Assembly (NCBI GenBank): GCA_049999805.1
Contig: JBNGIO010002906.1
Location: 1 to 32,010, forward strand
Direction of reading: 5' to 3'
From: Folioceros fuciformis
Taxonomy: Eukaryota
Length of the DNA: 32,010 bases
Below are positions 1 through 23,199 of this stretch, piece by piece (the stretch's first letter is position 1; each line of letters opens with the position of its first letter). Below the pieces are notes generated by a model. That model ran no database searches and was not told where the DNA came from. It was given only the letters and a program-made list of their open reading frames with translations. The position numbers and the translations under genes were made by a program.

Positions 1-81
1 ATCCCCCCACCTTTCCTCTACAACACTCCCTCACAAATCCAAAAAAAAGAAAACCTATCCTTTCCCAAGGGTCTATTCAGC

Positions 82-1012
82 ATGTGGAGTCCACAGCATC
101 ACCGGCTCGGCGATATTAATGTGCGTAGAATGAAGGAGGCTGTAGAGGGAAACCTGTATAGAGAACCCCTCAAGTTTCAGCCCCAGCCCAAGCTGTTTTG
201 TGAGTCTTGCATTTACGGCAAGCACCACAAGTCTCCGCACATAGACAAAAATCACACTAGAGCCAAAGCTTTGCTGGAGTTAGTACATTCTGACCTGTGT
301 GGCCCCATGTCCAAGCTGTCCTTTGGTGGGGCCAAGTATTTTCTTTCATTTATAGATGACTGGAGCAGGTTTACAGTAGTCTACTGCTTGGCAAAGAAGT
401 CTCAAACCCTAGAGTCGTTCAAGGACTACCTTGCAACTGCACAGCGTCAGACCTTGCATCTACTCAAAACACTTCGGATAGATGGCGGGGGTGAGTACGG
501 GTCAAATGCTTTCAAACAGCTTTGCAAAGAACTTGGCATACTTAGACAACTTACTGTCTCCTACACCTCACAACATAATCCAATAGATGAACACAACAAT
601 GGCGTTGTTCAAGAGCAGGCCAAGGACTCACTTGCTCAGGCTGGCCTCTCCTTGGGGTATTTGGTTGAGGCTGTTACAGCTGCAGTTTACATCAAAAACC
701 AAACACCTACAAGTGCAGTCCCGGGAGTACACCATTTGAGAGGTGGACAGGGCATAAGCCAAGAATTTCACACTTGAGAGTTTTTGGCAGCCCTGCCTAT
801 GCCTTCATCCCAAAAGGAGAAAGATGCAGCCAAATGCAACTAAGTGTATTTTTGTGGGGTACACGGAGGGCATCAAAGGATATAAGCTTTTTAATCCTGA
901 AAAACACCAGCTGATATATGCTCGGAGTGTGGTTTTCGATGAAGATGTAGTCCTCAACAGGACCTCCATCCCTGCACACCATGTTTCAGAATCCGAACCC
1001 GTTAGCACTTAG
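82..1012 (+). pseudogene. copia A integrase (GAG-pre-integrase, rve core, SH3-like), frameshifted near 720-820
   Basis: ORFs 82-777 and 824-1012 carry copia integrase motifs. Confidence 0.9.
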
Positions 1013-1612
1013 TCAGAAGCTACCACCTCCGAAGAAGTTAGTGAGGAGGACTTTGGGAGCACACCTGGTGACTCTCCTCTTCACAGCCCTCGTGAGCGTC
1101 CTGATGGTGAAGCTTCGGTGCCTGCTAGTGCTGATCATTCTGATTCAGAGTCATCTAATTCTGTTGCTCAAGAGCCTCTAGCTGGAGATGTCAGCCATTT
1201 TTCGTCCAACTCTTTGTCTGAACCTGACAATGCATCAGAGGCTGAGAACATAGTGACGCTCTCCAATGATGACGAAGACCTTGCACCTGTGGCTGCCCCA
1301 CCAACCAGGACTAGTCGTCCTTCCCGAGTACATCGTTCTCGGGCCAACTGGACTGTGCCTCCGTACAGTCCTCCCAGCAACTCTCTGCGGCCTTCCCGTC
1401 GGGGAGCACAAACGAAATCATAGGTCCCTGATCCAACCTTGCAGTTCGGCACTGTCAACGTTGAGGGGGAGACACTTGCAGAGGGAGCTTGAGTTAGTGA
1501 AGGTACGACATCTGAAGGAGCAGATACTGAAAGAAGCAGACAACGAAATGTTGCTCAAGCTCTAATCGCTGAGGCCCTGTCTACTGCTAATCAAGTTGGA
1601 GACCCAAGTACC

Positions 1613-3208
1613 ATGACTAAAGCCTTAAATGGCCCTCACGGTGCCGATTGGAAGGCCGCCATCAAATCTGAATATGACAGCCTGATCCAGAATGGCACCT
1701 GGAAGCTTGAACCATTGCCACCAGGGAGAAAGGCGGTTACCTGTAAGTGGGTCTTTAAGACCAAGCTCAACCCTGATGGTTCTACTACAAGGTACAAGGC
1801 CAGGTTAATGGCTCGTGGATTCACGCAGCGACCAGGTCTAGATTACCATGATACCTTTTTGGTAGTTGTTAGGTTCACCTCAGTCCGTGTCCTCCTTGCC
1901 TTCGTAGCACAGAACGACCTCACAATCCATCATATGGACGTGAAGACAGCTTTCCTGCACGGAGAATTAGAGGAGGATGTGTATATGCAACAACATGAGG
2001 GTCATGTAGATACGAAACACCCTAGTCATGTCTGCAAGCTCATAAAAACAATATACGGCCTTAAGCAAGCTCCAAGGGCATGGTTCCAGAAGTTCAGCAC
2101 ATTTCTCAAGTCATTAGGGTTCAAAGAAAGCGATGCAGACTCGAATGTTTACCTTTGCACTGATGGGGATATGTTTGTCATCATAGCCCTCTATGTTGAT
2201 GATGCTATGCTAATAAGTAACAGCCCTGGAACTCTTCTACCAAAGGTCAAGGGTCTGTTGAGTAAACATTTTGAAATAACAGACCTTGGTGTCATCCGGT
2301 TCTTCTTGGGAGTGCAAGTGTTGCTTGTTCTAGAGAAAGGGTCAGTACTGCTGCACCAAGCACACTATGTAGACCTGATGCTCAGGACATTCAACATCGA
2401 GGACGCAAAGCCGGTCAGCACACCGATGGCCACTGGGACACGACTGTCCAAGTTGGACTGTCCAAAAACTGAGGAAGAAAGGGCCACCATGCTGGCAGTC
2501 CCCTACAGGAGGTTCGTGGGATTTGCCCTGTATATGTCAACAAAAACGAGGTTTGACTTGAGCCAGCCTTGAGGCATTCTTGCCCAGTTTGTTGAGGACC
2601 CTGGCAGCATTCATTGGATAGCAGGAAAGCGGGTAATGAGATACCTCAAAGGGACTAGAAATTATGGACTTCAATATCGCAAGGACCCAACAGCCACTAC
2701 ATTGTTTCTGCAAGGCTACACTGATGCCGACTTGGGAGGAGACCCAGACACAAGAAGGTCAGTCTCTGCTTACTGTTTTACCCTTGCTGGAGCTGCAATT
2801 TCTTGGCAATCGAAGAAGCAGACCTTCGTCAGCACCTCCACAACGGAAGCAGAATATGGAGCAGCTGCAGAGAGCTGCAAGGAGGCTGTGGCCAATTGAA
2901 GACTTCTGGCAGATATATCCCAAGAGCAAGTTGACCCCACGCCAATGTTCTATGACAACCAGTCGGCACTCCTGCTAGCCAGTAATCCTGTTTACCACAC
3001 ACGTACAAAGCACATAGATTTGCACTTACATTATGTTAGACAGTCCGTCACATGTAGAGAGGTTGTACCCACCTACGTGCCAACCGATGCAAATTATGCC
3101 GATTTGCTCACAAAACCCTTAAGCCGAGAGAGGCATGAATCACATGTTCAGGGTTTAGGTATGGTCGACATGACACCATTTCCATCACATGCTCTGAAGC
3201 CAAGCTAG
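1613..3208 (+). pseudogene. copia A reverse transcriptase and RNase H, interrupted by in-frame stops at 2570 and 2897
   Basis: ORFs 1613-2572, 2636-2899 and 2945-3208 are in one frame with RVT_2 and Ty1/copia RNase H motifs. Confidence 0.95.
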
Positions 3209-3659
3209 GTCAATTCGTGTCATATTCAGATTCTGACCAATCCATATAGGTGCTAGGTCTAGAGTAGGGTTTCCACTACGAGCATTCACAACCAAAGTTG
3301 CTGTCAGATGTCATGTAGACACATTCCTATAGGTACCCTATCATCTGGAAGACTTGCAGCTCTGTGATTGCAAATTACCAGCATTATGAATCAATCCACA
3401 GAAGCAGTAGCTGCCAACATTCCAGACAATGGGGTGCGGAGAAGGACTTACAGTAATGATGGACAGCGACTCCAGACTCGTCCGTGAACAAGCTAACCTT
3501 CAGCATTAGTTCAGGAGTCTCCTGGTTTTGGTACTGAACTGGATGGCCAACGCAAGTTGGTTTCCAGCCACCACAAAAACAAGATAGCAACATCGCGAGG
3601 AGGCCTGTCATAGGCAGTAAGCAAAAGCTGATGCGAGATTAGGTTAGGAACGTGCGCCT

Positions 3660-3668
3660 AAGAGGGAG
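3660..3668 (+). other. Polypurine tract of copia A
   Basis: AAGAGGGAG is immediately followed by TG, downstream of RNase H. Confidence 0.75.
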
Positions 3669-3753
3669 TGTCGAGGGCCTAGGTTTAGCGGCCCCTTAGG
3701 CATTAATATAGTCGCAAGTTTAGCCTGACCTATCAACCACCACCCAACCGACA
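3669..3753 (+). repeat. Putative short (85 bp) 3' LTR of copia A
   Basis: Starts TGTCG right after the PPT and ends CGACA (5-bp inverted termini). The 3' end is inferred because the 5' LTR is not in the window. Confidence 0.5.
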
Positions 3754-3887
3754 TCGGGCATGTCGGTTGAGTCAAGGGACACGTCCCGTCACCTGGACGT
3801 GCCTGCCGAACCTTGTACACCGCTCGCGTGAGCGTAATTCAATTGTCTATTCTGCTAGCATGCGCGCTCTCTAGATTTCTCTATTCC

Positions 3888-6430
3888 CTACGCGCCATAC
3901 TCTGTTACAGGGTCAGGTTTGAGGTGCTGGTTAGGGTTAAGTACAGCGTCCTCCTCATCAGCCGAATTTGTATTGTCATCTAAAGGAAGGTCTTCTACTG
4001 GTTCACCCGTGTCAACTGTAGGGTTAGGACCAATGATAGGGGGAACCTTGACAGTGCCATCTACTTCCTCATCTATAGGGAAGGTGACAGTGTCAAGATT
4101 GTCCTCTCCAGCTACTCCCTCTGAAGAGTTGGGAGGTGTGAGGTTGGTAGTCATTGCGTGCAAAGGTTCTATAAAAGTGACACTGCGTGCAAGGACCATT
4201 GATCGGGTGTCAAGATTATAGAGTTTATACGCTTTCACATGTTTGTTGTATCCCACGAAAAAGGAGACTTTGAGCTCGGTCTTCTAACTTGCGTTTTTCT
4301 ACAGGGATATAGGCCTTCGAAGGCCTTTGATCCAAATACTCGGAGATGGAGCAAGCTTAGTTTCCTATGCCAGATTACCTCATACAGGGTCTGTCCAGTG
4401 ACAGAGCTGGTGAGTATCCTGTTGAGTATATACGTACATGGCTATAACTACAGCTTCTGCCCAATACTCTTGAGGTAAGTTAGCATAGAGTAGCATGCTC
4501 CTAGTCATCCCTAGCAGTGTCTGGTTTTTTCTTTCGACAACGCCATTCTGTTGCTGGGTATATGGGACAATAAGCTGCCTCTGTATGCCTTGTTCTTGGA
4601 GATAGTCGTCAAAAGCATTATTGACGAACTCTGTCCCATTGTCGTTGCGCAAGACTTTAAGGAGACATCTAGATTGTCTTTGCGTAATTGGAAGCCACTC
4701 CTTGAAGTGCATAAGGGTATCACTTTTTAGTTGCATAGGTATAGTCCAAGAATACCGATTGAAGTCGTCTGTAAGGGTTAAGTAGTACAGGGTTCCACCC
4801 AAAGACGGCTCATGGATCTTGCTTGAGATATCAGCATGTACAAGAGCAAGGACAATCTTTGCTCTGTGTGCAGCTTTGGGGAATGGTAACTCCTTCTATT
4901 TGGCGAGGATGTACGATTCACAGATCCGAAGGTCCCTAAAACAAGCAGGTAGGGGTTCTTTGTGACAGCCTATCCGTGCCATGTCAATGAGTTTATGTTG
5001 TTAGCATGACCTAGACGTGCGTGCCACAGGGATGCTAACCTAGTTGTCTTCATGTTGACAGAAAAGGAGGAGTGACTTACAGGATGAGGAGAACACCTTA
5101 GTTCTAGCCTGTATAAGTCATGGTCGAGGACGCCTCTAAATGCACATGCACCAGAGGAATTCTTCCTGTAAAAGCAGCAGGCATCATCAGCGACACATAT
5201 CTCATACATCCGAAGCTGCATGATCTTGCTCATTGACAGAAGATTCTTGGCCATCTCAGGTACAAATAGAACTTTGGCGACCTTCAGAACTGTGTTGTCA
5301 TCGAGAATGAAGGTACATTCCCCATGCCCTTCAACTTGGAGGCTAGTGTCACTCCTTTCATCACCAAGCAAGACTTTATCCTTCATTTGACACACTGTCA
5401 AACTGGAGAATAAATCTTTGTTGTTGCAGATATGTGCAGTGGCTCCTAAGTCTAGGAACCAGTCATCTCTGCCATACGATGAAGTCCTCATACAGACTGT
5501 GAGTATCTTCACTGTAGCCTTAGAGTTTTCTCCTTTCTCCTTGACAACAACGTTCGCTGACGGTCTTGTGGGTTGTGATCGCTATGGTTCACCACCTTTC
5601 TTCTTGCGGCACTCACATGCCCAATGTCCAGCGGCACCACACCAATTACAGTTGCCTGTCCGCTTGGGCGCTACTGGAGGGAATGGTGCACCATCAGCTC
5701 GACCACCAAGTGCCCTACCCTTCGATTTCTTAAAACGAGAGGTAAGCACTTTGTCAACTTTACTTCTAGATCCACTAGTTGCAAACAGGCGCCCTTGCTC
5801 TTCCTGGAACAGAGCACCAATAACTTCTTCAAGCTTAATGGTGACAGGAGTACCAGCAAAGGATGCCTGATGAGCGGTCCGGATGGGTCCGTTCTATGTG
5901 GAGATAAAGTTTTGGTAGGAGGAAGGGAGGCTGCTCAATAGTTGAGCAACAACCTCTATCTCGTCCATCTTGCAGCCAAGGGCAACTATCTGAGCTCGCA
6001 GGTGGCGGAACTTGGTGACATGAGATGCCACTTTGTCTCCCTCCCTCATACGCAGCCCATAGAATTCCTACTTGGCTGCACACAGAGTAAGAATATTCTG
6101 TACCGCATATGTGGCTACAAGTTGATCCCAGATCTCGGAAGCACTGGTGAGATACTCGACATCAGGTACGAGGTCATCATCTAGGCCTCCAATGAGTAGG
6201 GCAAGTGCTATTGAGTTCAGTTGGTCCCATTTTTGGTTGTCACTAACTGACGGGGCAGGCAATGAGTTGGGGCAGGTTTCTTAAATGTAGCATCGACCAC
6301 GCTCCAAACGCCTCGCGCTACAAGAGTGGACTTCATTTGAACTTTCCAAACTTGGTATCGTGTTCCATTAAATCGGTCCTTGTCCTTGAGCTCATAAGTG
6401 AAGGATGGTCCTGCAAGCCAGGAGCCATGT
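3888..6430 (-). pseudogene. copia B gag-protease-integrase polyprotein, multiple frameshifts and stops
   Basis: ORF fragments 6068-6262, 4970-5512, 4380-4802 and 3888-4256, plus manual translation of 6262-6400 and 5609-5650. The start position is approximate. Confidence 0.88.
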
Positions 6431-7055
6431 GCAAGGTGGTGTTCTGCCCGAACTGTAAGTTGAGATGACCAAGTTGTTTTGTAAGTTGATCTAGAGACGC
6501 TAGGTTCATGCGTAAAGTGACCTTCCTTGAGTTATGACTCGTGGAAAAAGAGACACTAAACACAATGTTGTAGCATTCGTGAGTTTTCTTGCAGGACTTC
6601 TAATACTTGGTTCACAGGGAGGGAGGTGTTGGGTTTATGCCAGGATGCACAGGGGAACCTGGAGCTATCCGTCTGTCCTGACACAGACTCAACACTAATC
6701 CCTCCTAGCAAAGCAAGGATTAGAGGCCAAGGGTTCGGCAATCTCAATCGATCAAAGGGACATATGAAGGTAATCTAGACGCTTCACAATGTGTGCCAGT
6801 CATTAAGTTATAAAATAAACTCTTGATGAAAAGAAGAACCTAACTAAACCGCCGTGTGTCCAGGTCATGTGAAGAGGTGCGACCGGTGGGTTCTGAATTC
6901 TGAGGTCCTGAGATGCAAAGAGTGGCCAACACCCCAACTTGATGACTACTCGAGTGACATGGAAGACGCTAGACGACGCTTCATCAAGCTTGGTGACGTT
7001 TCAACTCTCACTGTCCAGGCGCTTAGCACTCCTGGTGTCTGGAGGAAAAAAAAGG

Positions 7056-7670
7056 TTAGAAGATGCAATCTCCAGCGGGGGGAAAGATCTGGTGTTTTCT
7101 CTCCTCCCATTGGCGCCCAAGCTCAATCTCCTTCATGAGATCAATGATTTCATTGATCTGGTATTTAATCGAACTTGATGTCGTTGTGATTGCTCGTCCT
7201 AATAGGTGATCCAGGTGATCGACTCTGTTCTTGATCGCTTTCTGATTCAACAGCACTACAGATAAGGATTTCTCAACCTTAGTGACGCTTACAAGTTATC
7301 TGGCCACAACGTCCTGATTTCTCTTGTCGCTAGGTGCAGGGTAATCGCATGGTGGTTCAGAGTGGCAGGGGACTTGATAATTCATTGGCCAACTGTGGGG
7401 CAGATCAAAGTCCTGCCTACTTCTAGCCAATCTCTCTCTGCGCAGGCTGTCCACCATATGATTTCTGGCAAGCCGTCCTTGATGTAGGTTGAGTCCTCGT
7501 ATAGAGTGTCAGTCAATGGAGTCCTTCAGCCAGTTGTAGGTGAAATCCTGCTCATGCAGGTCTAGAATTGCTTCTAGGGGAGCGAGATGTGCTTGCGGAG
7601 GAAGGGTTCCTCCACGGCAATTGCGGCTACCATTTCTGTACCACCTACGCGGGCTTTCGCAACTTGGCAT
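7056..7670 (-). pseudogene. Degenerate ~205-codon ORF of unknown function between the PBS and gag of copia B
   Basis: ATG at 7670, about 30 nt after the PBS. One frame runs to the stop at 7056 with only two internal stops (TGA 7509-7511, TAA 7296-7298), both explicable as C-to-T changes. Confidence 0.45.
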
Positions 7671-7700
7671 GATTCATGGAAGACAGAATCCAGAGCAAAC

Positions 7701-7711
7701 CTCTAATACCA
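7701..7711 (-). other. tRNA-Met(i) primer binding site, one mismatch
   Basis: The minus strand reads TGGTATTAGAG versus canonical TGGTATCAGAG, directly after the LTR-terminal CA. Confidence 0.8.
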
Positions 7712-7858
7712 TGTTTATTTTGCAAGGAGTGGAAAAGACAAATTGCATTGTAAAAATGAAATTAATTATGAGTTCACATTTTGGCTCACTATATATGTGA
7801 CTCTAGGTGACGATTCATGTTTCAAACCCTAACTAGCCTTATCCTTTCATATTTAACA
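7712..7858 (-). repeat. 5' LTR of copia B (147 bp)
   Basis: Minus strand TGTTAAATAT...AAATAAACA with TGTT/AACA termini. It abuts the PBS on one side and an interrupted transposase codon on the other, and contains a TATATA-like element. Confidence 0.8.
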
Positions 7859-8340
7859 GTGTGGCCCACAAGCAAAAAACCAACCTTGATTTTTTCAAAC
7901 GTTCCCATATCCACGAACACATTCAGCTATGCAAAGAGCAGTTGGTACTAATTCTCTCTGCATGTGTTGTCTAGTTGTAAATATAGAACCTTTGGCAATA
8001 CGCCAGCATACATATGAATGGCATCCTGGATGATTGATATAGTCAAGTTTGCATTCTTCCACAAGTTTGCTAGATGCAGGTATGCCTTTGCATTGTACAC
8101 ACAGTTGTGCACCATACACCCCACTACATGCACTGCCACTTGACTTTCCTCATATAGGTTCTTGGGCCATCATAAGAAGTGCGGAATTTCTGTCTTCTTG
8201 TGATCCATCCCATCAATTGCTAGCATCATATACTTCCGCGGGTACACATAGCTTTTGCTTCAATGCTTGGACATCTTTGCACGCTCTACGCATAACCAAT
8301 CTCAACGGGCGTCTAGAGCAGTTTGGTACTTCTCTACATG
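7859..8340 (-). pseudogene. Sola-like / DUF7869-type DDE transposase remnant, truncated by the copia B insertion
   Basis: Single-frame translation through stops: ..YPRKYMMLAIDGMDHKKTEIPHF..VHVVGCMVH..NANLTISII..LPKVLYLQLDNTCREN*YQLLFA*LNVFVDMGTFEKIKVGFLLVGH. The IDGMD, LQLDNxxRENK and FLxVGHT motifs match my memory of this family. The upstream extent is uncertain. Confidence 0.65.
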
Positions 8341-9459
8341 CACGACCCCGCATATCAAGTGAATTGAGCATGACTAATCTGCGAGATTCATTTCGTCAAG
8401 CACCAAACTCACGGCAACGACACTTGAGCAAGACCTCGCGACCTTTAAACCCTTCTTTCGGGGATTCTTGGATGGGCCATGTGTGACCACAAAACCTAGG
8501 TATACTTTCCACGAAATGGGTTGAGCAAAAGACCATACCACAAGCACGAAAGCCCACACATAGGGAGGGCGCTGGCCAGCCGGCGCCCACCCTCTATGTG
8601 GGTTGTCATTCACCTTCATATAGCCAGTTGCATAAAGGTCCCCGCTTCCATGATCAAACGCCGGCCGAACGCGGCCCACCCCTAGCCCATTAGCAATTCC
8701 AACATAGGCATATAAGGAGAAAGCAACCCAACTATGCCCTTATCATCCACAAACACTACAGCGATAGTGTAAACGTATGCATGCTAACCATAGTCTACGA
8801 TGTCCATTAGTATGAGGAAATGACCTTTGTTTCAGTCAACAAATGGCAGTGCATACCTTGTTCTACTTTAGTTGATGTATTCTTTATCGTTGCCTTTGAT
8901 CCAGCTGTGGAGTGAAATCTTGTGTCTAAAGACACCGTGTGTTCCACATTCACCCTCTATGTCGTTGTAGTCATATGATTCGCTCCCAAGGGAATGATTT
9001 GTGCCAAGGAACGCTAACTTCTATTAATACTGACCCTTACCTAAGTCATGACTCGCCCCTACTACCTACCATCTCAACTACTACTACCCCCAGTTAGCCC
9101 CGCTACCATGGATCCTACTCTACGACTCCAGTTCCCACTCCACAATCGCGATCGCTGTTTCCGTGACCGGTAGTTGTTTCCACGACTGTGGTGGGACCCA
9201 CCCAAAACCCTAACTAATATTTTTCCAGTAAGAGCCAGGCCTTGGGTTTCCACCATGGGTTTCTATCCCAAGGGCTTCCAGATTCACAGATCTAGCCTTA
9301 TTGGATGCTCTAGACACATGCAAATGCCAATCCTTGGAAAACAAGACCCCGCAAATTTAGCTACACTCCTTCACACACACATGCAAGACTCTCCACACAT
9401 GCAAAACACACAAGAGCTCTGGTTCACACTCATTTCCTACATGCCTGATTCGAAATGTC

Positions 9460-9672
9460 TCCAATCTTCTAGCAATGTTCACAAATCTCCAACAATCCCT
9501 TAGCAATCCTTTACAATCTCCCCCAATCTTCAAAAATCTCCAACAATCTTCAACAATCTCCCATATGCCTAGAAATCTCTTATAAATCTTCCATGAATCA
9601 TCTCCAATCTCTAGCAATCTTGCAGCAATCTCCAGCAATCTTCCACAATCTTCCTCAATCTCTCAGTAATCC
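9460..9672 (+). repeat. Degenerate ~10-bp tandem repeat with a CAATCT core
   Basis: Roughly 20 imperfect units such as caatcttcaa, caatctccag and caatcttcca. Confidence 0.8.
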
Positions 9673-9679
9673 TCTTCAG

Positions 9680-11578
9680 TTAGTTCTTCTCTTCACTCTC
9701 AATCTCTGGGAGAACATAGACAAAATATTCACCAGGTGGGAAGGCGGGGAATTGCTAGAGCAAAAGAAGCATACCACAGTGGGCATTAGCAAAAAAGGGA
9801 AGGGAAAGAGGAGGCCCTTGGATGACTCGAAGCTAGTTGACTTAGGATATGTGAAGCCAAAGGATATGCTAGCCAAGCCTTGGAAGTCTTTCCAAGGCAT
9901 ACCTCCAGAACAATGTAGAAAACAGATATTGATTACGACAACGGAAAAGGTGTTGGCAGGCATTATTGACTTGATGGGTATGGCTGATGACATAATGTTG
10001 CATAAGAAATTTCACTTCATTCAAGTTGCGATAGCGAAGCATCTAGGGTGCAAGTTGTTTGAGGAAGTACGGGCAGAGTATCCAAAGCACTCCATGGACA
10101 ACATGTTGGCAAGGTTTCAGACCCAATTCGCTGGAAAGGTGAGCAATTTCATTCATGCTTAATGATAGATTTGGTGGGCAGAGGGTGCATTGGGTTGAGG
10201 GCGTCGACTGGCCGGTGCCCTCAACCAGGTGCACCCTCTACCCAGGTTGTGTGTGGCAGGGCAGTGGGGTAAGGGTGCCTATTGGCCGGCAACTTGAGCC
10301 TATCCTTTCGAATTTCTAATCGGGCACTAGCGTAAGGGCTTTGCATTCATGCTGTCGTTTGTTGATAATGTGCAACAACTTAAAGATGTGGATAACTCGT
10401 CACGCCTGCCGGAAGCTTTCCAACAATTCATTTTTGAAGTTAACAACTGGAAGGGTCTGGAGGAAGAGCAGCGGGTTCTCGCAGACAAGGATTTACAGGA
10501 AGGAATGTTCAACTTCGCAATCCCTGGAGCAAATACTCAAGTACAAAATGAGGTGGTGAGTAGGAGTGTTATGGAGATGAAAGGATTTCTCTGACCAAGG
10601 AAATACTCCCTCCTCGTTATGGATGTCCCAAGAGGCTATGACATGGGCCCTATGGACAAGCGTTTAGATGAGCCCATGATAAGCACAATGTTGGAAAGTT
10701 TTGTTGAGAAGACAACTTGTGATGAATATCGGTTGGTTGTTATGCATGGAGTGGAGGGTGCGCATGCAATTAGGCATGCCCTTCGGAAATGGGGTCGGGC
10801 TGAAGGCATGATCTCCTTTGTTTGGGACACGGCGAACATGTCCAATGACAAGGGCGGATAAGAGACTGAGGAGTACATCACAATGGCTTGGGGTGCAAAA
10901 GAGGGCAGTGGAAAAGATAGTGTTCATGCTTCCTAGAGTATCCCGTCCACCATTCAACAGAGGAGATTTGTCATACCCCATGACTCGGTTGTGAAGAAGT
11001 AGATCTACTTGACGCACAATAAATGTGTGGTATGCCTGCATCATTGACCACTGGGTCTTATGATGAAACTTGTGCTTGCATTCTCCGAGGGAGGAGATTG
11101 GATCGTGGATGCTTGCTTTGGTAGTGGGACAATAACACTGGCAAGGCTGCTGTCGGGCAGGAATTGCATCGCAGTTGAGGTGGACTTGTGTTGCTCGGCT
11201 TACATACCTCAACGAATCAATGGCCACAAGGTTCTTCTTGATGCGGAAGAGAAACTAATGTTTGATGTGCATCGCAGGGGCCCGTTGCAATTTTGGACAA
11301 GAGAAATTTGCATCAACGATACGAATAGCTTGAAAGCGCAAGTTGTGCCTTTCAACCGACAAAGCACTCAACACCCTATCAGTTCGTCTGAGGAAGGAGG
11401 TCAAATGACGTAGGAGGTGGTTTGGCCAACACTGCAAGCTCGCGATAAGGCCAAGGAAGATGGTGATTTTGTGGATAAGGAGTTGGAAGAGATTGACAAC
11501 TTCGACGCAAACGACCAACAAAGGCTTGCAAGAGTTACTGCAATGTATGACTCCGTGTCTGCGAATGAGGGTCATTAG
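9680..11578 (+). pseudogene. Beta-class N4-cytosine/N6-adenine DNA methyltransferase-like gene; predicted exons ~9680-10138 and 10331-11578, with six internal stops and no frameshift
   Basis: One frame runs 10331-11578: YSLLVMDVPRG (motif IV position, 10622-10633), ..FVWD..EEYITMAW.., then H*PLGLMMKLVLAFSEGGDWIVDACFGSGT..LARLLSGRNCIAVEVD (motif X/I/II, 11042-11185). Predicted phase-0 intron 10139-10330 (AAG|GTGAGC ... CTAAT ... TAG|). The 5' end is uncertain. Confidence 0.75.
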
Positions 11579-11867
11579 AGTTTATTAGTTTAAGTGTTTT
11601 TGTGCTGATCGAGCCCAGCGTAGATGCAACTATTGAACAATTAAGGAGTAAGGGGTGCCGGTCAGCCGATGCACTCACCATCAGTCGGTGTTATGCATGA
11701 TTAATTAGTGGAAAACTGAGAAAGATTGGTGTGCCCAAGGTGGTGACCCTTTGCACATAATACTATGTAGCTCATTTTGGGAGGGTTAAGATCTAGGACA
11801 TCAAACTTCAGGGCATGTACAAGTGTCCTTCATTATTCAGCCCCTTGCTGCTTTGTGGTGCTCTCTG

Positions 11868-12066
11868 TTGGCGTGCAGGTGTGCACCATGACCACGCTCG
11901 TGCACACTTGTGTGCGCCATGACGGCATTGGCGCTCACAAGTGCCTCAATTAAATAGCTAGCAGGCATTTTAAGCACATAATGGTAAAAAAAAATCCAAA
12001 AAATTAGCAAAAAAACCCAAAAAATCCCGTTTTTTAGGCAATGGCGCACGCAAGTGTGTGCCATGG
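11868..12066. repeat. Cluster of related palindromic motifs (ATGGCGCACACAAGTGTG-like) in both orientations, probably TE subterminal repeats
   Basis: 11898-11920 and 12041-12064 are near reverse complements. Partial copies lie at about 11868-11889 and 11928-11943, and A-tracts lie between the last two copies. Confidence 0.55.
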
Positions 12067-12262
12067 CTTCAAGGGTTTGTAGGTTTTTTTCCCTATTTTT
12101 ACTACTTTTTTGGATTTTATTATGTACCGTACACTAGTTGCACGTAATAGTACTATTTGCTCCTCCTTGCTCAGTTTTTGCCCAGCACACTTAGAGGTAA
12201 TCCTGTATGCATAATAATAATCTAGCTCCCCATCTTCTTCTGAGAATTCTTTCCATTACTCT

Positions 12263-12574
12263 CTAATACTCATGTTTGGATAGTCTCCCTTGTTTGCCCA
12301 AACTCACATTGTCAAAGTGTACATGTCGAGGTGTATTATAAGGTTGCACTTTCAATCCAGTAGGAGTCATTGTCTTCAATCTGACCTTCACCCAATCCTT
12401 CTGAGCTTGCTCCTCTTCTGTCTTAAGTGCATCAATGTCAGTAGCTAGATGCTTGCAGATCATCCTATGGAGAGTCCACTGGCGGCAAGAGTACTTGGTG
12501 GCATGGATCCATTCCCTACCACAATGTATACATTCAACTCCCCTTGTTGCCATCTTAGTGGAGAGTTCCATCAA
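12263..12574 (-). pseudogene. BED zinc-finger-like fragment, possible hAT transposase N-terminus
   Basis: VECIHCGREW..ATK..R..LH...CKH pattern. No transposase core was recognised downstream. Confidence 0.4.
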
Positions 12575-13069
12575 CAGACAACAGTGCCTACAGTCTAGTA
12601 GCTAGATGCCTAGCATGATGACTACGAACTAGGCCAATAGTAGGGCAGTAGCGAGATTGTACAATCCCAAGGGGGGATGGTGAGGCGTCATGGTTTTTAA
12701 TCAAAGAAACTAGACCGCAACTACAACTGAAGCCTTATAGGATTGTAAGCGTAGCAAGCACGAGGAACAGATGTGGCAAGACTTGTCATATTTGCATTCA
12801 AACCCAACTTCACAAGGAACCCGTTTGAGGGTTTAAAGCTTAATTCATGCTTTGCCTATTTCCGATATTCCCCTTTATGCTGATTATTTCAAAGAAGAGG
12901 GTGTACATGAATTAATAGTACAATAAACTTAGGTTGCATACTTAACTATAGTTTCATAATCAATTACAATAGATATTTCAACTCTTGTATATATCATAGT
13001 TTTTCGTTTAATGAAAATAACCACTTTTCTTTTCTCTCGCCGGTTGCTCGTGTGCTTGTGGTCGTTCCC

Positions 13070-13715
13070 CCGCTCACCTTCCCTCGTGTTACATCGTCCA
13101 TGCTTAGAGGCTTTGACGAAAGGAGGAAGGTTTTGACCTACAAGAAGCTTCTCCACATTGATGCCAAAAGCAACGAACATTCTCTGGTGTCTAGCAAAGG
13201 CTTGTCAGCCATAATGTTTTTTATCAACCTCTGTCTCTAGGGAACCGCTTGGGTTTGTTTTAAGTGCTAGTTTAACAAGCTTTTCTAAGGATATCCTGCT
13301 AGATCGGCTGCCTTTAGAACCCATTGTGCATGTAGAATCTTCATTTTACTCATAGGATCCACCAAACCTAGACTACCCAACTGCTTGTATTGGATAATAT
13401 GTTGCCATGCCACCTTATGAGAAAAGGAGACCAGCTCCCTGGACTGACTCCACAAGAAGTTAGTCATAATCTGTTGCAACCTCCTTAAGTCCACCTTATC
13501 AGGAGCCCACAGGAAGAGATAATACCACAGAGAAGCAATCAAAATGTGGTTTATCACCACAATCCTGCCTGCAAGATTAAGGTCCAGTAGTCGTAAGTCG
13601 TTGACTTTCCGGATAAATTGGAGGTAAAGATATTTTCCAATCTCTTCATTCTCATCCTCTTCTTGAAATGGCACACCCAAATACTTGTGAGGGGTAGGCT
13701 CCATAAGTTTCCGAA
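13070..13715 (-). mobile_element. Non-LTR (LINE, L1/Tx1-like) ORF2 fragment, C-terminal to the RT core
   Basis: KYLGVPF..LNLAGRIVVINHIL..LWYY..NFLWS..KVAWQHII..KQLGSLGLVD..LHAQWVLK in ORF 13285-13758. Boundaries are approximate. Confidence 0.85.
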
Positions 13716-13734
13716 CAAGTGAAAGCGTGGGCAC

Positions 13735-15055
13735 TACGTGATTTAACGTCATGAGCACCTTAATGAGATGCTTGCATGTGTGACCTTATGCAACCTAAGA
13801 GCACATACAACATGGCCAATTGCTATTGAGACAGCAGTTGGCCATGTCTAATATAGTATATTAGACACCACATATGTTGTGCTTGCACTAACCTTGCTGC
13901 CCCCAAGAACATACACATTTTGTCCATTGGTGTTGGTAAAGCCACAAAGTTCTTTGGGATCTTAGTGGCCTTGGCCACATCATGTTCTATTACATGTTCC
14001 AATTTACTATTTTGCACAGACCCTTGTTTCTTACACTGTTGTTGGTGTAAAAAATGAACGTCCACCTCATCCACCAAGACATGTCGAAGCCAATCAACCC
14101 ACCTACCTCGAAGAAGTTGCTTGGTGAAGGAAGCTCTTACTTTAAGATGCAAATGGCAAGCTCTGATAGAACTATTGCAATCTTGGCTTGCATGTGGCAC
14201 TGATCAAAGTGCTTTCAACCACATGTGCATGACGTTCCCCCACTATTACTTGATGTACTTGGAAAACGGTGGAAACAAGGGCTCATATTCCGCATAAAGG
14301 GCTGCTAATTTCACCTTGGCTGCCTCCTTGGATATGAATGGTGATCCTCTAAGATACATGTTGTCACCTAGTTTTTGCATGATGTTTGCTCTCGTTTCTA
14401 TGTTCTTCACTTTTTGCAACAAGTTTCTCAGCCATGCACGCAAGACATTCCACATATATGGAAAACCCAACGTGCTGTCACTAAACATATATTTGATAGC
14501 ATTAATCTCTGCTTCAAAATCATCAAATAGGAAAGCATTTGATTACTAAGCTGGGTCCACTGTGGGTGCATAGTTGCGGAGCACTTTGAGCCATTTTGCC
14601 ATAATCAGGCCGTAAACTTCTTTTAAGAGTACCCAAGATACTAGAATGCCGTTCATAAAATTGTTAAACACCAACAAACTTACCTACTGAAAATGCCACT
14701 TGTTTAGTCCAAAAGTGGCAGAATGACATAATTATGGCCCCACTTGACCATCATCCAAAGCATGAATGGTGTTTGCACTCCGAGGACAAAGGTGGCTGGA
14801 GCATGGCTGGAGCAAAGTTAGGCATACAAAGGTTTTCAGGATAGAAAATCAAGTTCTTGTTGACATCCATCCAAAGTCAAACACTCTCCGTATCATTGGT
14901 GTGGAGTTGGTAAGAATGAGAGGCAACATGAGCCTGCATATTTTGAACATCTTTTGAAGTGAGAAAAATATCTCAGGTGAATTTATATCTTGTGTTCCTA
15001 TGACATTTTCCATGAACTTCCTCCTCATAGTCCACCATAATCTGGTGTTTTGGCA
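13735..15055 (-). pseudogene. Mutator-like (MULE) transposase with C-terminal SWIM zinc finger, heavily degenerate
   Basis: Minus-strand fragments in order: DIFLTSKDVQNM..YQLHTND..LWMD..IFY; TFGLNK..LLVFN..ILVSWVL; DDFEAEINAI..F..MWNVLRAWLRNL; HASQDCNSSI..H..LK..RGRWVDWL; C-x-C..GHTCKHLIKV (SWIM). A possible further N-terminal piece lies at about 15720-15840. Confidence 0.75.
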
Positions 15056-16612: not shown

Positions 16613-18268
16613 TCATTCCCACTCAACAGTTGCAGGGGGCTTGGAGGTGATGTCATAAACAATGCGGTTGATGCCTCTCACTTTGTTGCAGATTTCTGAA
16701 GAGACCTGCGCCAAAAATTTGGATTCAAAATGGAACCAATTGGCGGTCATCCCATCCTCGCTGGTGATCGCCCTCAGCGCCACGGCGTTGGAGAGCGTCC
16801 TCCGGTCTCCTTGCACTCCCACCGTCTTCACAGGCAGGAACACGGCAAATGCCTGCCATATTTGATCATACAGCCCGGCCTCCTTTATGCAGTTGATGAA
16901 AATCTCATCAGCATCGCGAAGCATCTCCAGCGCACCTCCAGCAGTCACGTCTCCCAAGATGCGCACCGCCAGGCCCGGTCCCGGAAACGGGTGGCGTTTG
17001 AGGAAGTTCTCCGGAACATTCAGCAGCGCTCCCAGCTTTCGAACCTCATCCTTGAACAACAACTTCAGGGGCTCCACCAGCTTCAGCTTCATATCTTTGG
17101 GCAGACCCCCCACATTGTGATGACTCTTGATGGTATGGGAGTGCATCTTCCCGCTGCCCGGCGGCGGGCACGACTCTATCACATCCGGGTAAAGAGTCCC
17201 CTGTACCAGATACCTCGGCTTCCTCCCAACTTTCAATTCCAAAGCCGACGAGAATTCGTCGAACACCGCAATGAACTCGGCGCCGATGATCTTCCGCTTC
17301 CTCTCCGGATCCGTCACTCCCGCCAGCTTGCTCAAAAACTGGTGGCTTGCGTCCACGCAGGTAACCGGGAGATGGAGGTCGGCCTGGAACGTTCCCATCA
17401 CCCGCTCCTGCTCCTTGTACCTCAGCAGCCCGTTGTCCACAAACACACAGTGCAGCCGATCTCCCAGAGCCCTGTGCGTGAGCGTGGCCGCCACGGTGGA
17501 ATCCACACCCCCCGACAAGGCGCAGATTGCGTGATCCTCCGGACCCACGCTTTCCCTGATCAACGATATCTGCTCCTGCAACACATCCTCCAGCTTCCAG
17601 TCCGCCTCCACTCCACAGACCTCCAGTAGCAGGTACCGCAGCGTCTCCAACCCCCGCTCACTATGGCTCACCTCGGGGTGGTACTGCAGCCCGAAGATAT
17701 CTCGCTCCGCATGCTCGATCGCCGCAACCCCGCCCTGCAAACTCCTGGCCACAACCCTAAAACCTGCGGGCAGCTTCACAGCCTCGTCCCCATGGCTCAT
17801 CCACACCTCTTGCCGTCCCCCGCTCTCCACCCTCCCGTACAGCCTCGACCCCTGCTCCGGCACGATGGTCATCGGCCCGTACTCCTGGCTCTTCCCCTGG
17901 CGCACCTCGCCTCCCAGCTCCCTCACGATCAGCTGCAGCCCGTAGCAAATCCCGAGCACAGCCACCCCCTGCTCCGCCGTGTACTCAAAAAACCCCTCCG
18001 GCACCGTCGGCGCCCCATCCTCGTGCACCGAATGAGGCCCCCCCGACAGCACGATCACCCCCGGCGCGTATGACTTGATCACATCCAACGAATTGCCCGC
18101 CGCGATGCAGAACGAGCAGATCGCCAGCTCCCGGATCCGCCTGGTGATGAGATGAGTGTACTGGGACCCGAAGTCTATCACCACGACCGTGTTCCCCCCG
18201 TGCTTCCGCGCTTCTTCCTGTGGCTGCGGGTTGACGGCCGGCAGCGATTCCAGCCCGTTCGCCGCCAT
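16613..18268 (-). CDS. GMPS: GMP synthase (glutamine-hydrolysing), single-exon CDS, 551 aa from the first ATG
   Basis: IDFGSQYT, LSGGP, LGICYG (catalytic Cys), WMSHGD, QYHPEV, ALSGGVDS PP-loop, IKSHHNVGG, RHPFPGPGL and C-terminal YDITSKPPATVEWE. The ORF track starts at GTG 18313; the first ATG is at 18268. Confidence 0.97.
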   Translation of the reverse strand: MAANGLESLPAVNPQPQEEARKHGGNTVVVIDFGSQYTHLITRRIRELAICSFCIAAGNSLDVIKSYAPGVIVLSGGPHSVHEDGAPTVPEGFFEYTAEQGVAVLGICYGLQLIVRELGGEVRQGKSQEYGPMTIVPEQGSRLYGRVESGGRQEVWMSHGDEAVKLPAGFRVVARSLQGGVAAIEHAERDIFGLQYHPEVSHSERGLETLRYLLLEVCGVEADWKLEDVLQEQISLIRESVGPEDHAICALSGGVDSTVAATLTHRALGDRLHCVFVDNGLLRYKEQERVMGTFQADLHLPVTCVDASHQFLSKLAGVTDPERKRKIIGAEFIAVFDEFSSALELKVGRKPRYLVQGTLYPDVIESCPPPGSGKMHSHTIKSHHNVGGLPKDMKLKLVEPLKLLFKDEVRKLGALLNVPENFLKRHPFPGPGLAVRILGDVTAGGALEMLRDADEIFINCIKEAGLYDQIWQAFAVFLPVKTVGVQGDRRTLSNAVALRAITSEDGMTANWFHFESKFLAQVSSEICNKVRGINRIVYDITSKPPATVEWE

Positions 18269-18847
18269 AACTGGAGCTCCACAGCGAGCTCCGAGTCCGG
18301 CTTTCTTCCCCACCTTTTACACGACTCGAGTCCACTTACGGCCCGACGACGGATTTCGAAGACGGGGACCATACCGGGAGCCCTCAACCCTAATCGTGGT
18401 TGACATGCCGGGGGTTAGCCTAACCTCCGAGGCAGGTTATGGGGATTGCCTTAGAAGCAGGCAGTGAAGTTGGCAGTGTGGTGCTTGCCTTGGCTGCCCA
18501 GGCAGTGGGGTGCAGTGCGGTGCGGAGAGCCAGGAGCAGCGCTGCTGGCTCCAAAGGGCTGCTGATCAGAGCGAGCGGAGCGTGGGGCGGAGTGGCGCGG
18601 ATCCGGCGGAAGGGAGCTCGGCGCTGTCAGGGACGCGATCGGACCATGCCGATGTGGAGGGATGGAATCTGAGAAATCGCGGGATCGCGTGGGCGTGATC
18701 TCGGCGCTGCGGGCCCGCTGCTGCGGGCCTTTGGGATCTGTAGGCCTGCTGGCGCACTGGAGTGTTGTGCCAGGGGGGTGATCCGTGTGCGGAGTGGTCT
18801 GGTGAGGGGATCGAGGGAGAGGGAGCGGGAGCTCTGCGGCGGGCGCC
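18269..18847. promoter_or_regulatory. GC/CpG-rich divergent promoter and 5' UTR region shared by GMPS and AP-1 gamma
   Basis: Head-to-head ATGs about 580 bp apart, with a telo-box-like AACCCTAAT at 18386-18394. Confidence 0.55.
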
Positions 18848-21484
18848 ATGGGGAGCAGGTTGCGGGACATGATCCGCTCCGTTCGGGCATGTAAGACTGC
18901 CGCGCAGGAGCGGGCAGTGATCGCCAAGGAATGTGCGGTGCTCAGGAATGCGTTCAAGGAGAATGATCAAGACTACAGACATCGGAATGTTGCCAAGCTC
19001 ATGTTCATCCATATGCTAGGTTATCCCACGCACTTTGGTCAAATGGAGTGCCTGAAGCTCATTGCCACGTCCGGGTTTCCGGAGAAGCGGATAGGATATC
19101 TGGGGCTCATGCTGCTTCTTGATGAGAGGCAGGAGGTGCTGATGTTGGTCACCAATTCGTTGAAGAATGATCTGAGCCACGCCAACCAGTTCATCGTGGG
19201 GCTTGCGTTGTGTGCGCTGGGGAATATTTGTACCGCTGAAATGGCACGTGACCTTGCTCCCGAGGTAGAGAGGCTGTTGCACAGCAGCAACCCTTACATC
19301 CGGAAGAAGGCAGCTCTGTGCTCGGTGCGGGTAATCAGGAAGGTACCTGACCTGGTGGAGTACTTCACCCCAGGGGCTACGGGGCTTCTGTCGGAGAAGC
19401 ATCATGGAGTGCTGCTAGCGGGTGTGAAGCTTGCCACCGAGCTTTGCCTGGCGAGCCCCACAGCTTTGGAGCACTTCAGGAAGCAGACGGCGTCGGTTAT
19501 TCGGGTTCTCAAGAACTATTTAGTCAGTGGTTACGCGCCGGAGTTCGATGTGGGTGGGATTACGGATCCGTTTCTACAGGTTAGGATTCTGAGATTGCTT
19601 CGCCTTCTTGGAGAAGGTGACCCGGAGTGCAGCGATATCATGAGTGACATCCTGGCCCAGGTTGCCACAAATACGGAGTCCAATAAAAATGCAGGAAATG
19701 CTGTTCTGTACGAGTGTGTGCAGACGATCATGGGTATAGAAGCCATCGGAGGGTTGCGTGTGCTTGCCATCAACATATTGGGGAAGTTCCTGTCCAACCG
19801 GGACAACAACATCCGGTATGTGGCCCTCAACACTCTGGTCAATGTTGTGTCCGTGGATACCCAGGCTGTCCAGCGGCATCGTGCCACCATAGTGGAATGT
19901 GTGAAGGACTCGGATGTTTCGATCCGAAGAAGAGCGCTGGATCTGGTCTATGCTCTTGTGAACGAGAACAATATCATCACGCTCTCTAAGGAGCTCTTGG
20001 AGTACCTGAAGGTGAGCGACACCGAGTTCAAGGGTGATCTCACTGCCAAAATATGCTCCCTTGTCCAGAAGTATGCTCCTGATAAAGTGTGGTATATTGA
20101 CCACATGATAAAAGTGATGGTGGAGGCAGGTGCCTATGTGAAGGATGAAGTGGTTAGAGCTCTGGTGGTACTTATCACCAATGCACCTGATCTTCACAGA
20201 TATTCGGTCAGATCTTTATATCAAGCCTTCCACAGCTGGAGAGGACAGGAAAGTCTGGCACAAGTGACTGTCTGGTGCATCGGGGAGTATGGGGAAATGC
20301 TTGTCAATCATCACGCTGAACTGCGAGAAGACCATACAACAGTGACGGAATCTGATGCTGTGGATGTTCTGGAGTCAGTCTTGAAGGATGCTCGAGTCAG
20401 TTCTGCAACGTATGCCTATGCATTGACAGCACTACTCAAGCTCGCCTCCAGACTTCCATCTTGTGCAGGGCGCATTAAAGGGTTGATTGGACAGTACAAG
20501 GGAAGTTTAATTCTGGAATTGCAGCAGCGGTCCATAGAGTTTGGGGCAATTTTGAGCAAGCATGAGAAGATAAAGGGTGCCCTTCTCGAGAGGATGCCTG
20601 TGCTAGACGAAGCAGCTTATTCTATCAAACAGGGCGACTCAGGCGACTATGGTAGCCCAGATGGGATACCAAACTTATTGGGAGAAGTGACTACGAATGG
20701 GCCTAGCAAGGCAGTGCCTGTGGTTCCTCTCATGGATCTTGTTGACTTGAATGGTGAGGATGAGACACCACAGCCACAAGGGCGATCAGCTGCAGACAGT
20801 TTGTTGTTGGATCTTCTGGGGGCTGGGCCGGCAAGCACTCTGAATGCCATGTCTTCTCCAGTGCATGCTTCAGTGGGTGGTGCAGACTTGCTTCTAGACA
20901 TCCTGTCTCTGGACACGCCTGCTGTTGCGACTGTAACCTCTGCAAATCATCACTCCAACAACAACTCATCATCTTTGCTTCAGAATGTTGGCACAGTACC
21001 TGCTAAGACGACTTCCATTGAGGATGTATTGGGTAGTAGTCAGCACAGCTTAACAGCTGGCATGGCTGATCTCTTGGGTGGCGATGATATGTTTGGGCCC
21101 CCGGTTTCAGCTGTTGCCCTCTCTTTTCCTTCAATTGTAGCTTTCAAGAGCCCTTCCTTGCAAGTTACTTTTGATTTCACAAAAGAGTCTTCAAGCCCGC
21201 GAAGTACAACAGTCCGGGCGACGTACACAAATTCTAGTTCGATATCTTACAGTGACTTCATATTTCAGGCTGCTGTTCCGAAGTTTATGCAGTTGCAACT
21301 TGAGCCTGCCAGTGGAAGTGTACTCCCAGCCTCCGGTGAGGGGAGTTTAGTGCAGGTGATCAAAGTGACAAATTCTTTGCATGGCCAAAAACCTTTGGCT
21401 ATGAAGCTTAAAATATGTTACAAGCGCAATGGCCAAGATGTCGTGGAACAGGGACAGGTCAGCAATTTTCCTGCTGGGTTGTAG
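18848..21484 (+). CDS. AP1G: AP-1 complex subunit gamma (gamma-adaptin), single-exon CDS, 878 aa
   Basis: RLRDMIRSVRACKTAAQER, RHRNVAKLMFIHMLGYPTHFGQMECLKL, ITDPFLQVRILRLLRLLG, ELQQRSIEF, a low-complexity hinge and the ear domain FIFQAAVPKFMQLQL..GQVSNFP. Confidence 0.97.
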   Translation: MGSRLRDMIRSVRACKTAAQERAVIAKECAVLRNAFKENDQDYRHRNVAKLMFIHMLGYPTHFGQMECLKLIATSGFPEKRIGYLGLMLLLDERQEVLMLVTNSLKNDLSHANQFIVGLALCALGNICTAEMARDLAPEVERLLHSSNPYIRKKAALCSVRVIRKVPDLVEYFTPGATGLLSEKHHGVLLAGVKLATELCLASPTALEHFRKQTASVIRVLKNYLVSGYAPEFDVGGITDPFLQVRILRLLRLLGEGDPECSDIMSDILAQVATNTESNKNAGNAVLYECVQTIMGIEAIGGLRVLAINILGKFLSNRDNNIRYVALNTLVNVVSVDTQAVQRHRATIVECVKDSDVSIRRRALDLVYALVNENNIITLSKELLEYLKVSDTEFKGDLTAKICSLVQKYAPDKVWYIDHMIKVMVEAGAYVKDEVVRALVVLITNAPDLHRYSVRSLYQAFHSWRGQESLAQVTVWCIGEYGEMLVNHHAELREDHTTVTESDAVDVLESVLKDARVSSATYAYALTALLKLASRLPSCAGRIKGLIGQYKGSLILELQQRSIEFGAILSKHEKIKGALLERMPVLDEAAYSIKQGDSGDYGSPDGIPNLLGEVTTNGPSKAVPVVPLMDLVDLNGEDETPQPQGRSAADSLLLDLLGAGPASTLNAMSSPVHASVGGADLLLDILSLDTPAVATVTSANHHSNNNSSSLLQNVGTVPAKTTSIEDVLGSSQHSLTAGMADLLGGDDMFGPPVSAVALSFPSIVAFKSPSLQVTFDFTKESSSPRSTTVRATYTNSSSISYSDFIFQAAVPKFMQLQLEPASGSVLPASGEGSLVQVIKVTNSLHGQKPLAMKLKICYKRNGQDVVEQGQVSNFPAGL

Positions 21485-23098: not shown

Positions 23099-23120
23099 GA
23101 GGAGGAGGAGGAGGAGGAGA
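23099..23120. repeat. (GGA)n microsatellite
   Basis: About 7 GGA/GAG units just downstream of the RING gene stop. Confidence 0.85.
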
Positions 23121-23199
23121 TAGAGGCAATCGATGGATAATGCGAAAATTTTGAAGTAAGTACAGCTCTATTATGTGAAAAATTTGAAGTAAATAATTG

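Follow-up and report, generated by a model that had tools for sequence, protein, structure and literature searches.

A decayed DUF7869-type transposase gene beside a decayed amino-methylase gene in Folioceros fuciformis: plausible remains of a two-gene DNA transposon

Eukaryotic retrotransposons are said to carry DNMT methyltransferases. Retrotransposon-borne DAM has also been described, and that study gives DAM-LTR (long terminal repeat) elements as absent from Streptophyta (10.64898/2026.05.21.726589). The closest systems known to us are found in algal DNA transposons. The 21.5-kb element Sola1-1_Ec32 of Ectocarpus has an opposite-strand gene for a 1104-aa ParB-like and DNA-methylase protein, whose methylase is predicted to make N4-methylcytosine (4mC) or N6-methyladenine (6mA) and which, its authors propose, binds and marks its own element (PMC12477816; Dinatale et al. 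2025, Genome Biol). Red-algal Plavaka and Mutator elements possess accessory genes with ParB domains and methylases; the Bostrychia Plavaka genes PAG2 and PAG3 code for a ParB-like domain and for a methylase domain of the N6-adenine type, and arrays of inverted repeats beside the Plavaka ParB gene have been proposed as binding sites (Petroll et al., 10.1101/2025.02.11.637652). The combination of ParB with an N6_N4 methylase is, moreover, an architecture typical of phages (PMC12704722), and a review table names a "Physcomitrella Sola1" (PMC9033089). Here we describe a stretch of 32,010 nt from Folioceros fuciformis (contig JBNGIO010002906.1 of assembly GCA_049999805.1; this whole stretch is called the window below), in which the relic of a DUF7869-type transposase gene and the relic of an amino-methylase gene lie on opposite strands. 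We found in the literature no description of a ParB-methylase and transposon pair in streptophytes or land plants, and no mention of DUF7869.

An earlier note on this DNA had taken the two relics for genes of one element. With middling confidence, we read the interval as defunct remnants of a DDE transposon family with two genes, the window copy being an internally deleted derivative; it would thus be a decayed example, in the land-plant lineage, of an arrangement already known from algae. That both remnants here belong to one element is plausible but unproven, and it is less well supported than the role of the methylase family as a passenger of DUF7869-type transposons. Like Sola1-1_Ec32, the window combines a DDE transposase with an accessory gene on the opposite strand; compared by description, and unlike that intact element of a brown alga, it holds decayed, 5'-truncated relics without the ParB part in a streptophyte-like genome. 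With Plavaka PAG2/PAG3 it would share a DDE transposon that has N6-adenine methylase and ParB-like domains, whereas Plavaka belongs to another transposon superfamily and its ParB is fused to a 2-oxoglutarate (2OG) oxygenase and its methylase to SET, in separate proteins. The ParB-N6_N4 fusions of phages and prophages (PMC12704722, PMC4738411) have the same two-domain architecture and the beta-class order of motif IV before motif I; the present family differs from them in being eukaryotic, in its intron, in an extra helical middle domain and in a motif IV of the form D-x-P-[YHR]-G, and its likeness to ParB, in contrast to theirs, appears in the predicted fold only, not by Pfam or PHROGs. DNMT and DAM retrotransposons resemble it as mobile elements that encode their own DNA-modifying enzyme, and differ in being retrotransposons with C5 or Dam-type (D12 class) enzymes. 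The features of the locus are as follows.

6217..7858, minus strand: 5' region of an LTR element of copia type, which truncates the transposase relic; gag lies at 6217-6531 (Pfam DUF4219, Retrotran_gag_2, Pol_BBD and rve).
7858..8157, minus strand: relic of DUF7869, the catalytic core of a DDE-type transposase (Pfam, E 2.7e-23; six-frame scan; tblastn from the transposase of locus L071, described below).
7860..8602, minus strand: extent, at the DNA level, of the multi-copy repeat bearing the transposase (contig matches and depth bins, ~85-111 against ~10-14 for single-copy sequence).
8550..8610, no strand: imperfect GC-rich hairpin S1 (dG -20, z -4.5; 0 of 200 shuffles fold as well).
8906..9440, no strand: unrelated high-copy repeat of ~535 nt, inserted between the gene relics (depth 2425 and 483; contig flanks).
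9453..9675, no strand: tandem array of 10-, 20- and 21-nt units resembling CAATCTCCAA, abutting the start of methylase homology (repeat search, TRF).
9701..10138, plus strand: methylase relic, exon with the helical middle domain (tblastn with relatives).
10139..10330, plus strand: probable intron of 192 nt, phase 0, with borders AAG/GTGAGC and CACTAG/C (direct reading).
10331..11578, plus strand: relic of the methylase domain, with 6 exonic in-frame stops (HMMER, tblastn, alignment and motif placement).
11579..12120, no strand: multi-copy tail past the methylase, holding the sequence called S4 (depth bins; exact single-copy contig from 11817).

A physical link between the methylase family and a DUF7869 transposase is present in an unrelated eukaryote. 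A scan of metagenome contigs with the family alignment (A2) returned 80 loci, one of which, L071 (2253 nt), holds the C-terminus of a methylase at 2-289 on the plus strand, followed on the minus strand by a DUF7869 gene running from ~2184 down to ~445 (Pfam E 8.6e-24 for 627-902). Another locus of the same data set, L068, has a full-length family gene at 206-2717, the C-terminus of which is 74-87% identical to that of L071, and ends in a colinear transposase segment, TRIQEFLPIILRQ, which matches TRIHEILPIIMRQ just past the DUF7869 core of L071. L071 and L068 are two diverged paralogues in one eukaryote, with a common layout in which the methylase is followed by a transposase in reverse orientation. 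About 30 of the 80 loci match most of the methylase domain, mostly with 45-49% identity to the Ginkgo protein P0006. Viral contigs (IMG/VR) gave generic motif-I matches only, at 4 loci, none of which spans the methylase domain. Two further metagenome loci, L058 and L063, each contain two methylase-like open reading frames (ORFs; on opposite strands in L058) and several other ORFs, and may represent a further type of element with methylase genes.

Across streptophytes, the methylase family occurs in multiple copies, with four members in Chara braunii (P0011, P0015, P0021, P0036), four in Riccia sorocarpa (P0016, P0023, P0046, P0048), two in Ginkgo biloba (P0006, P0010) and two in Adiantum nelumboides (P0019, P0039); it also occurs in an amoebozoan transcriptome (P0049) and in many contigs from Logan, JGI and ENA. 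Several diverged paralogues exist per genome, and P0010 and P0019 are visibly rearranged, a situation compatible with mobile DNA. In full-length members (~670-790 aa), a helical middle domain separates the methylase from an N-terminal domain that carries the motif GGxH...A. The N-terminal domain was modeled with AlphaFold (AF2) from an 18-row alignment on a metagenomic member in which this domain is whole (L016:1100-1900). The model has a mean predicted local distance difference test score (pLDDT) of 69.6, with residues 1-52 disordered, and the fold search returned 7 PDB matches at E<=0.001; the ten best-ranked matches were all ParB, Noc or PadC, and KorB and sulfiredoxin came next. This predicted fold supports the description of the family as a ParB-like domain joined to a beta-class amino-methylase. 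Searches by other means did not recover ParB: Pfam, on 10 members, gave nothing beyond one weak DUF6551 match (E 0.019), PHROGs, on 8 members, and the PDB profile search gave methylases only, and an earlier AF2 model of P0007, cut at its N-terminus, had no fold match at E<=0.001.

For the methylase part, the relatives found in PDB by sequence are CcrM, DpnA, M.MboIIA, M.RsrI and an N4-cytosine enzyme. A D-x-P-x-G stretch of the family aligns to the DPPY of CcrM and M.MboIIA, and HMMER domain scores are low. The canonical motif IV, (D/N/S)PP(Y/F/W), is absent from the window relic, which reads DVPR(GY), and from the three closest relatives, which read DLPR(GL); distant members keep an aromatic residue or His at the fourth position (DFPY, DIPY, DAPY, DIPH). 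Because DVPRGY and DLPRGL depart from DPPY, the enzymatic activity of this Arg-motif-IV subfamily, intact copies included, appears uncertain.

In the window itself, the methylase gene that the earlier note had placed on the plus strand at ~9680-11578 is real, with homology from 9701; it is the relic of a bacterial-type enzyme, a beta-class N6/N4 DNA methyltransferase. Translated in one reading frame, 9680-11578 (P0001) scored 26.3 bits on N6_N4_Mtase (PF01555), below the 26.7 cut-off of Pfam, over the motif I region only. HMMER, run exhaustively against 1.84 billion representatives, returned 62 relatives at E<=1e-3, of which 15 reached E<=1e-10; the best one, P0003 (E 5.4e-30), is 30% identical over query residues 232-559. 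Fourteen of the 20 relatives scanned (8/10 and 6/10) pass the Pfam cut-off for N6_N4_Mtase, while a word-based homologue search with the relic gave no match. Relatives align by tblastn to 9701-10147 and 10373-11380 in one shared frame. The relic has 13 stops and no frameshift. One stop is terminal, 6 are exonic and the other 6 lie in 10139-10330; since nearly half of the stops fall between the borders AAG/GTGAGC and CACTAG/C, 10139-10330 is best read as a probable intron. The equivalent of motif IV, DVPRGY (10622-10639), precedes the SAM-binding motif I, DACFGSGT (11108-11131), by ~160 codons, the order of the beta permutation, and one exonic stop falls in the most conserved motif, the YQKP of relatives reading HH-stop-P in the window. 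The start of homology at 9701 falls near residue 128 in P0007 and near residue 263 in P0006. A permissive tblastn search with nine N-terminal parts found no ParB-like part upstream of 9701, the best match (E 0.04) being the 9704 start itself; the window copy therefore misses the ParB-like part.

The transposase remnant proposed on the minus strand from 7859 is likewise real. The reverse strand of 7700-8739, translated with stops written as X (P0002), matches DUF7869 at residues 195-294 (E 2.7e-23); the score of 83 bits exceeds the cut-off of 26, and the match extends over positions 3-103 of the 192 in the profile. By tblastn, the transposase of L071 aligns to residues 152-294 only, and has ~400 further codons upstream of this aligned part; therefore, the window transposase is without its 5' part. 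The 143 codons that align to this intact relative contain 4 in-frame stops, 2 of them inside the DUF7869 match, and no frameshift. As both relics carry stops and neither is frameshifted, decay mainly through in-frame stops had been rightly described. The relic breaks off abruptly at 7858-7860, in mid-domain (profile position 103), just after LLVGHT. A complete catalytic core, with both Asp and the downstream acidic residue, is not present in the window relic, and the rest of the transposase was not found on the minus strand of 1-6500; the stretches IDGMD and LDNTCREN, read from the translation, would be those that contain Asp. Word-based searches gave no match with the relic, and with the L071 transposase a single uninformative, mis-framed protein. 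The sole indication on the superfamily from the Atlas lead is a DDE_3/IS630-like fold at a template modelling (TM) score of ~0.5, and the name Sola is a guess guided by the literature. In a six-frame scan with stops read as X, DUF7869 (minus) and N6_N4_Mtase (plus) were the only two Pfam families in 6500-13501.

Copy number in the source organism was approached with contigs from two DNA runs of one sample, aligned to the window at a likeness of at least 80%; contig depth is here a rough proxy, and statements on how contigs bridge or continue hold among the matches listed. Exact single-copy contigs have a depth of ~10-14. Summed depths (X1) along the locus are as follows.

7908-8509, transposase relic: ~85-111.
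8510-8810: 30.
8811-9111, high-copy repeat: 2425.
9112-9412, high-copy repeat: 483.
9413-9713, tandem array: 209.
9714-10014, methylase exon 1: 73.
10015-10315, intron: 26, the lowest bin of the methylase gene.
10316-10616, methylase: 45.
10617-11218, methylase: 84-102.
11219-11820, tail: 71-73.
11821-12121, tail: 54.
12122-13024: 18-29.

With ~85-111 for the transposase and ~73-102 over most of the methylase (9714-11218) against ~10-12 for exact single-copy contigs, both relics belong to repeats of roughly 5-9 copies. The multi-copy state of the methylase excludes a single-copy host gene, which the earlier note had named as the contrary outcome. In a putative RNA run (X4), no contig falls on either gene, which has no bearing on expression.

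Between the relics, the head-to-head layout was correctly seen; the spacing given as ~1.3 kb is 1.34 kb by the coordinates then used and ~1.1 kb by homology (8602-9701). The high-copy repeat at 8906-9440 begins TGTGGAGTG, contains a 21-nt inverted repeat (8906-8926 / 9124-9144), and is met at 8906 by 17 contigs with unlike left flanks; 38 nt of it (8960-8997) are matched by contigs that abound in the putative RNA run. It may be a solo LTR, a MITE (miniature inverted-repeat transposable element) or a SINE. The tandem array varies in length among other genomic copies, in which joints skip 69-220 nt, and by analogy it could be a set of element-internal repeats like those beside the ParB genes of red-algal Plavaka elements. 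Four copies of a 22-bp palindrome had also been proposed, of which two proved to be hairpins. S1 and the imperfect hairpin S2 (10170-10250, in the intron; dG -28.3, z -5.9, 0 of 200 shuffles folding as well) agree at 16 of the 22 core positions by manual count and have the flank CACCCTCTA in common. The look-alikes S3 (10255-10315, also intronic) and S4 (11635-11695) lack palindromic structure: of 200 shuffles, 153 fold as well as S3, and 22 as well as S4. Rfam, run on 8400-12400, returned sub-threshold miRNA-like matches only, on S2. S1 and S2 were considered as a high-copy MITE and rejected as such, since both lie in the lowest-depth bins; they may be sites for ParB, sites for the transposase or small insertions.

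As to the limits of the element, another genomic copy of the transposase repeat extends 587 nt past 7860. Together with the copia-type gag, protease and integrase recognised by Pfam on the minus strand at ~3900-6530, this agrees with the earlier view that the left end is cut by a copia element; no LTR pair was found for that element, whose flank ends ...TTTAACA on the plus strand at 7858. The right edge of the methylase repeat likely lies ~240-540 nt past the methylase stop, at ~11820-12120. Termini had been reported as unidentified, and we found no pair of terminal inverted repeats (TIRs) here either; an inverted repeat at 7866-7885 / 13042-13061 was rejected as TIR candidate, its left arm lying within transposase coding sequence.

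Around the locus, the window holds two copia-type elements in opposite orientation, at 1-2572 (plus) and 3888-6531 (minus). The latter includes gag, protease and integrase, lacks a reverse transcriptase and is therefore itself truncated near 3900. Multi-copy ORFs at 13285-14203 (minus; depth ~150-170) have translations that resemble the C-terminal end of a reverse transcriptase of the non-LTR (LINE) type, and contigs from the putative RNA run cover them in part. Further on, 16613-27078 is GC-rich (0.53-0.64) with long uninterrupted ORFs, which resemble GMP synthase (16613-18316, minus, by eye), AP-1 gamma adaptin (18806-21484, plus; nearest Atlas cluster streptophyte), a RING-H2 membrane protein (23200-24516, minus, by eye) and a type I metacaspase with an LSD1-like zinc finger (25960-27078, plus, by eye). 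Intron-free genes of such length are unusual in land plants. Differences of run X3 from the window at 5500-14500 are C>T 491 and G>A 364, with every other kind at most 76; this pattern resembles bisulfite- or enzymatically converted DNA, so that methylation data for the organism probably exist.

For the proposal of two genes in one element speak the link of the methylase family to DUF7869 in L071 and L068 and the Ectocarpus Sola1 precedent. At this locus, no bridging contig stands among the matches listed, no termini were found, and the orientation differs from that in L071 and L068. Several observations weigh against reading the interval as remains of a two-gene transposon. The pairs of L071 and L068 stand tail to tail (convergent) and that of the window head to head (divergent); beyond these two, tblastn with P0002 (E<=10) and with L071 ORFs (E<=0.01) found no DUF7869 in any of the 80 loci, in flanks of 1-5 kb only, and within flanks of that size the methylase locus L010 adjoins an ordinary short-chain dehydrogenase gene. 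In the window, the ~1.1-kb spacer contains the unrelated high-copy repeat and the tandem array, depth between the relics (8510-8810) is only ~30, and no contig bridges transposase and methylase among the matches listed; one contig tracks the transposase relic to 8602 and continues for 2272 nt without a window match among those listed. A repeat search around the locus found neither TIRs nor target duplications, the left end being lost at 7858-7860, and the similar copy numbers of the two relics are weak evidence, contig depth being no copy count. Lastly, the aromatic residue usual in motif IV is replaced by Arg in this subfamily, whose 'methylase' may therefore have had no DNA-methylating activity at any time.

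The main rival explanation, which we consider somewhat unlikely, is that the relics are independent fragments brought together by nested insertions and deletions and were never parts of one element copy. It would suit the patchwork of two copia-type elements, high-copy repeat, tandem array and LINE-like ORF within 14 kb, the truncation of both genes at the ends facing each other, the lack of a bridging contig among the matches listed and the orientation, which differs from L071 and L068. It must, however, leave to coincidence the adjacency of two rare families, the only Pfam families in 7 kb, and these families are linked elsewhere (L071 and L068; PMC12477816) and their relics have similar depths in the source genome. 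We think it improbable that the methylase was cargo of another carrier, for instance a DNA transposon of another superfamily, some giant element or a virus that had integrated, beside or within which DUF7869 inserted. The phage-typical ParB and N6_N4 methylase architecture (PMC12704722), the ParB and methylase accessory genes of red-algal Plavaka and Mutator (10.1101/2025.02.11.637652) and the ~30 family loci without DUF7869 in their short flanks would agree with such a carrier, but the four IMG/VR loci are generic motif-I matches that do not span the methylase domain, no other transposase, integrase or capsid family occurs in 6500-13501, and the linkage in L071 and L068 is specifically to DUF7869. 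Hardly credible, finally, is a pseudogene of a domesticated host gene with no mobile DNA involved: the probable spliceosomal intron and the annotated relatives in plant gene sets could be taken in its favour, yet the sequence is multi-copy at an identity of at least 80% in the source genome, diverged paralogues, some of them rearranged (P0010, P0019), occur per genome in Chara, Riccia, Ginkgo and Adiantum, the relic sits in a repeat patchwork and its closest relative is only 30% identical.

For the two-gene DDE transposon that we prefer, autonomous copies would carry a DUF7869-type transposase gene and, divergent from it on the opposite strand, a gene for a ParB-like/beta-class N6-adenine/N4-cytosine methyltransferase. 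The window copy would be an internally deleted, non-autonomous derivative: a deletion in the middle of the element would have removed the 5' parts of both genes and left both 3' parts beside the termini. That both relics are without their 5' parts, and that the repeat ends ~240-540 nt past the methylase stop, fits such a derivative. Later, the middle of this copy would have taken up the high-copy repeat, a copia-type insertion would have removed the left end and point mutations would have completed the decay. In intact copies, the ParB-like domain might bind repeats inside the element and bring the methylase to the element's own DNA, where a 6mA or 4mC mark could influence how the transposase binds or counteract silencing by the host through 5-methylcytosine (5mC). 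The locus is dead, with nothing functional today, and adds no function. As a long shot, streptophytes could host an undescribed DUF7869 (possibly Sola1) transposon lineage with a self-targeting epigenetic module, in which the ParB-like domain would recognise the GC-rich hairpins or the tandem array as parS-like sites and the Arg-motif-IV amino-methylase would act as writer or reader of a mark other than 5mC on the DNA of the element itself.

DNA-modifying enzymes carried by transposons have recently become a theme, with TET/JBP in fungal elements and DNMT and Dam in retrotransposons, and the ParB-methylase proteins of algal DNA transposons belong to it. The methylase family of Chara, Riccia, Ginkgo and Adiantum, together with the relics described here, offers a handle for finding intact copies, which would let the writing of 6mA or 4mC be tested in plants, where both marks are disputed.

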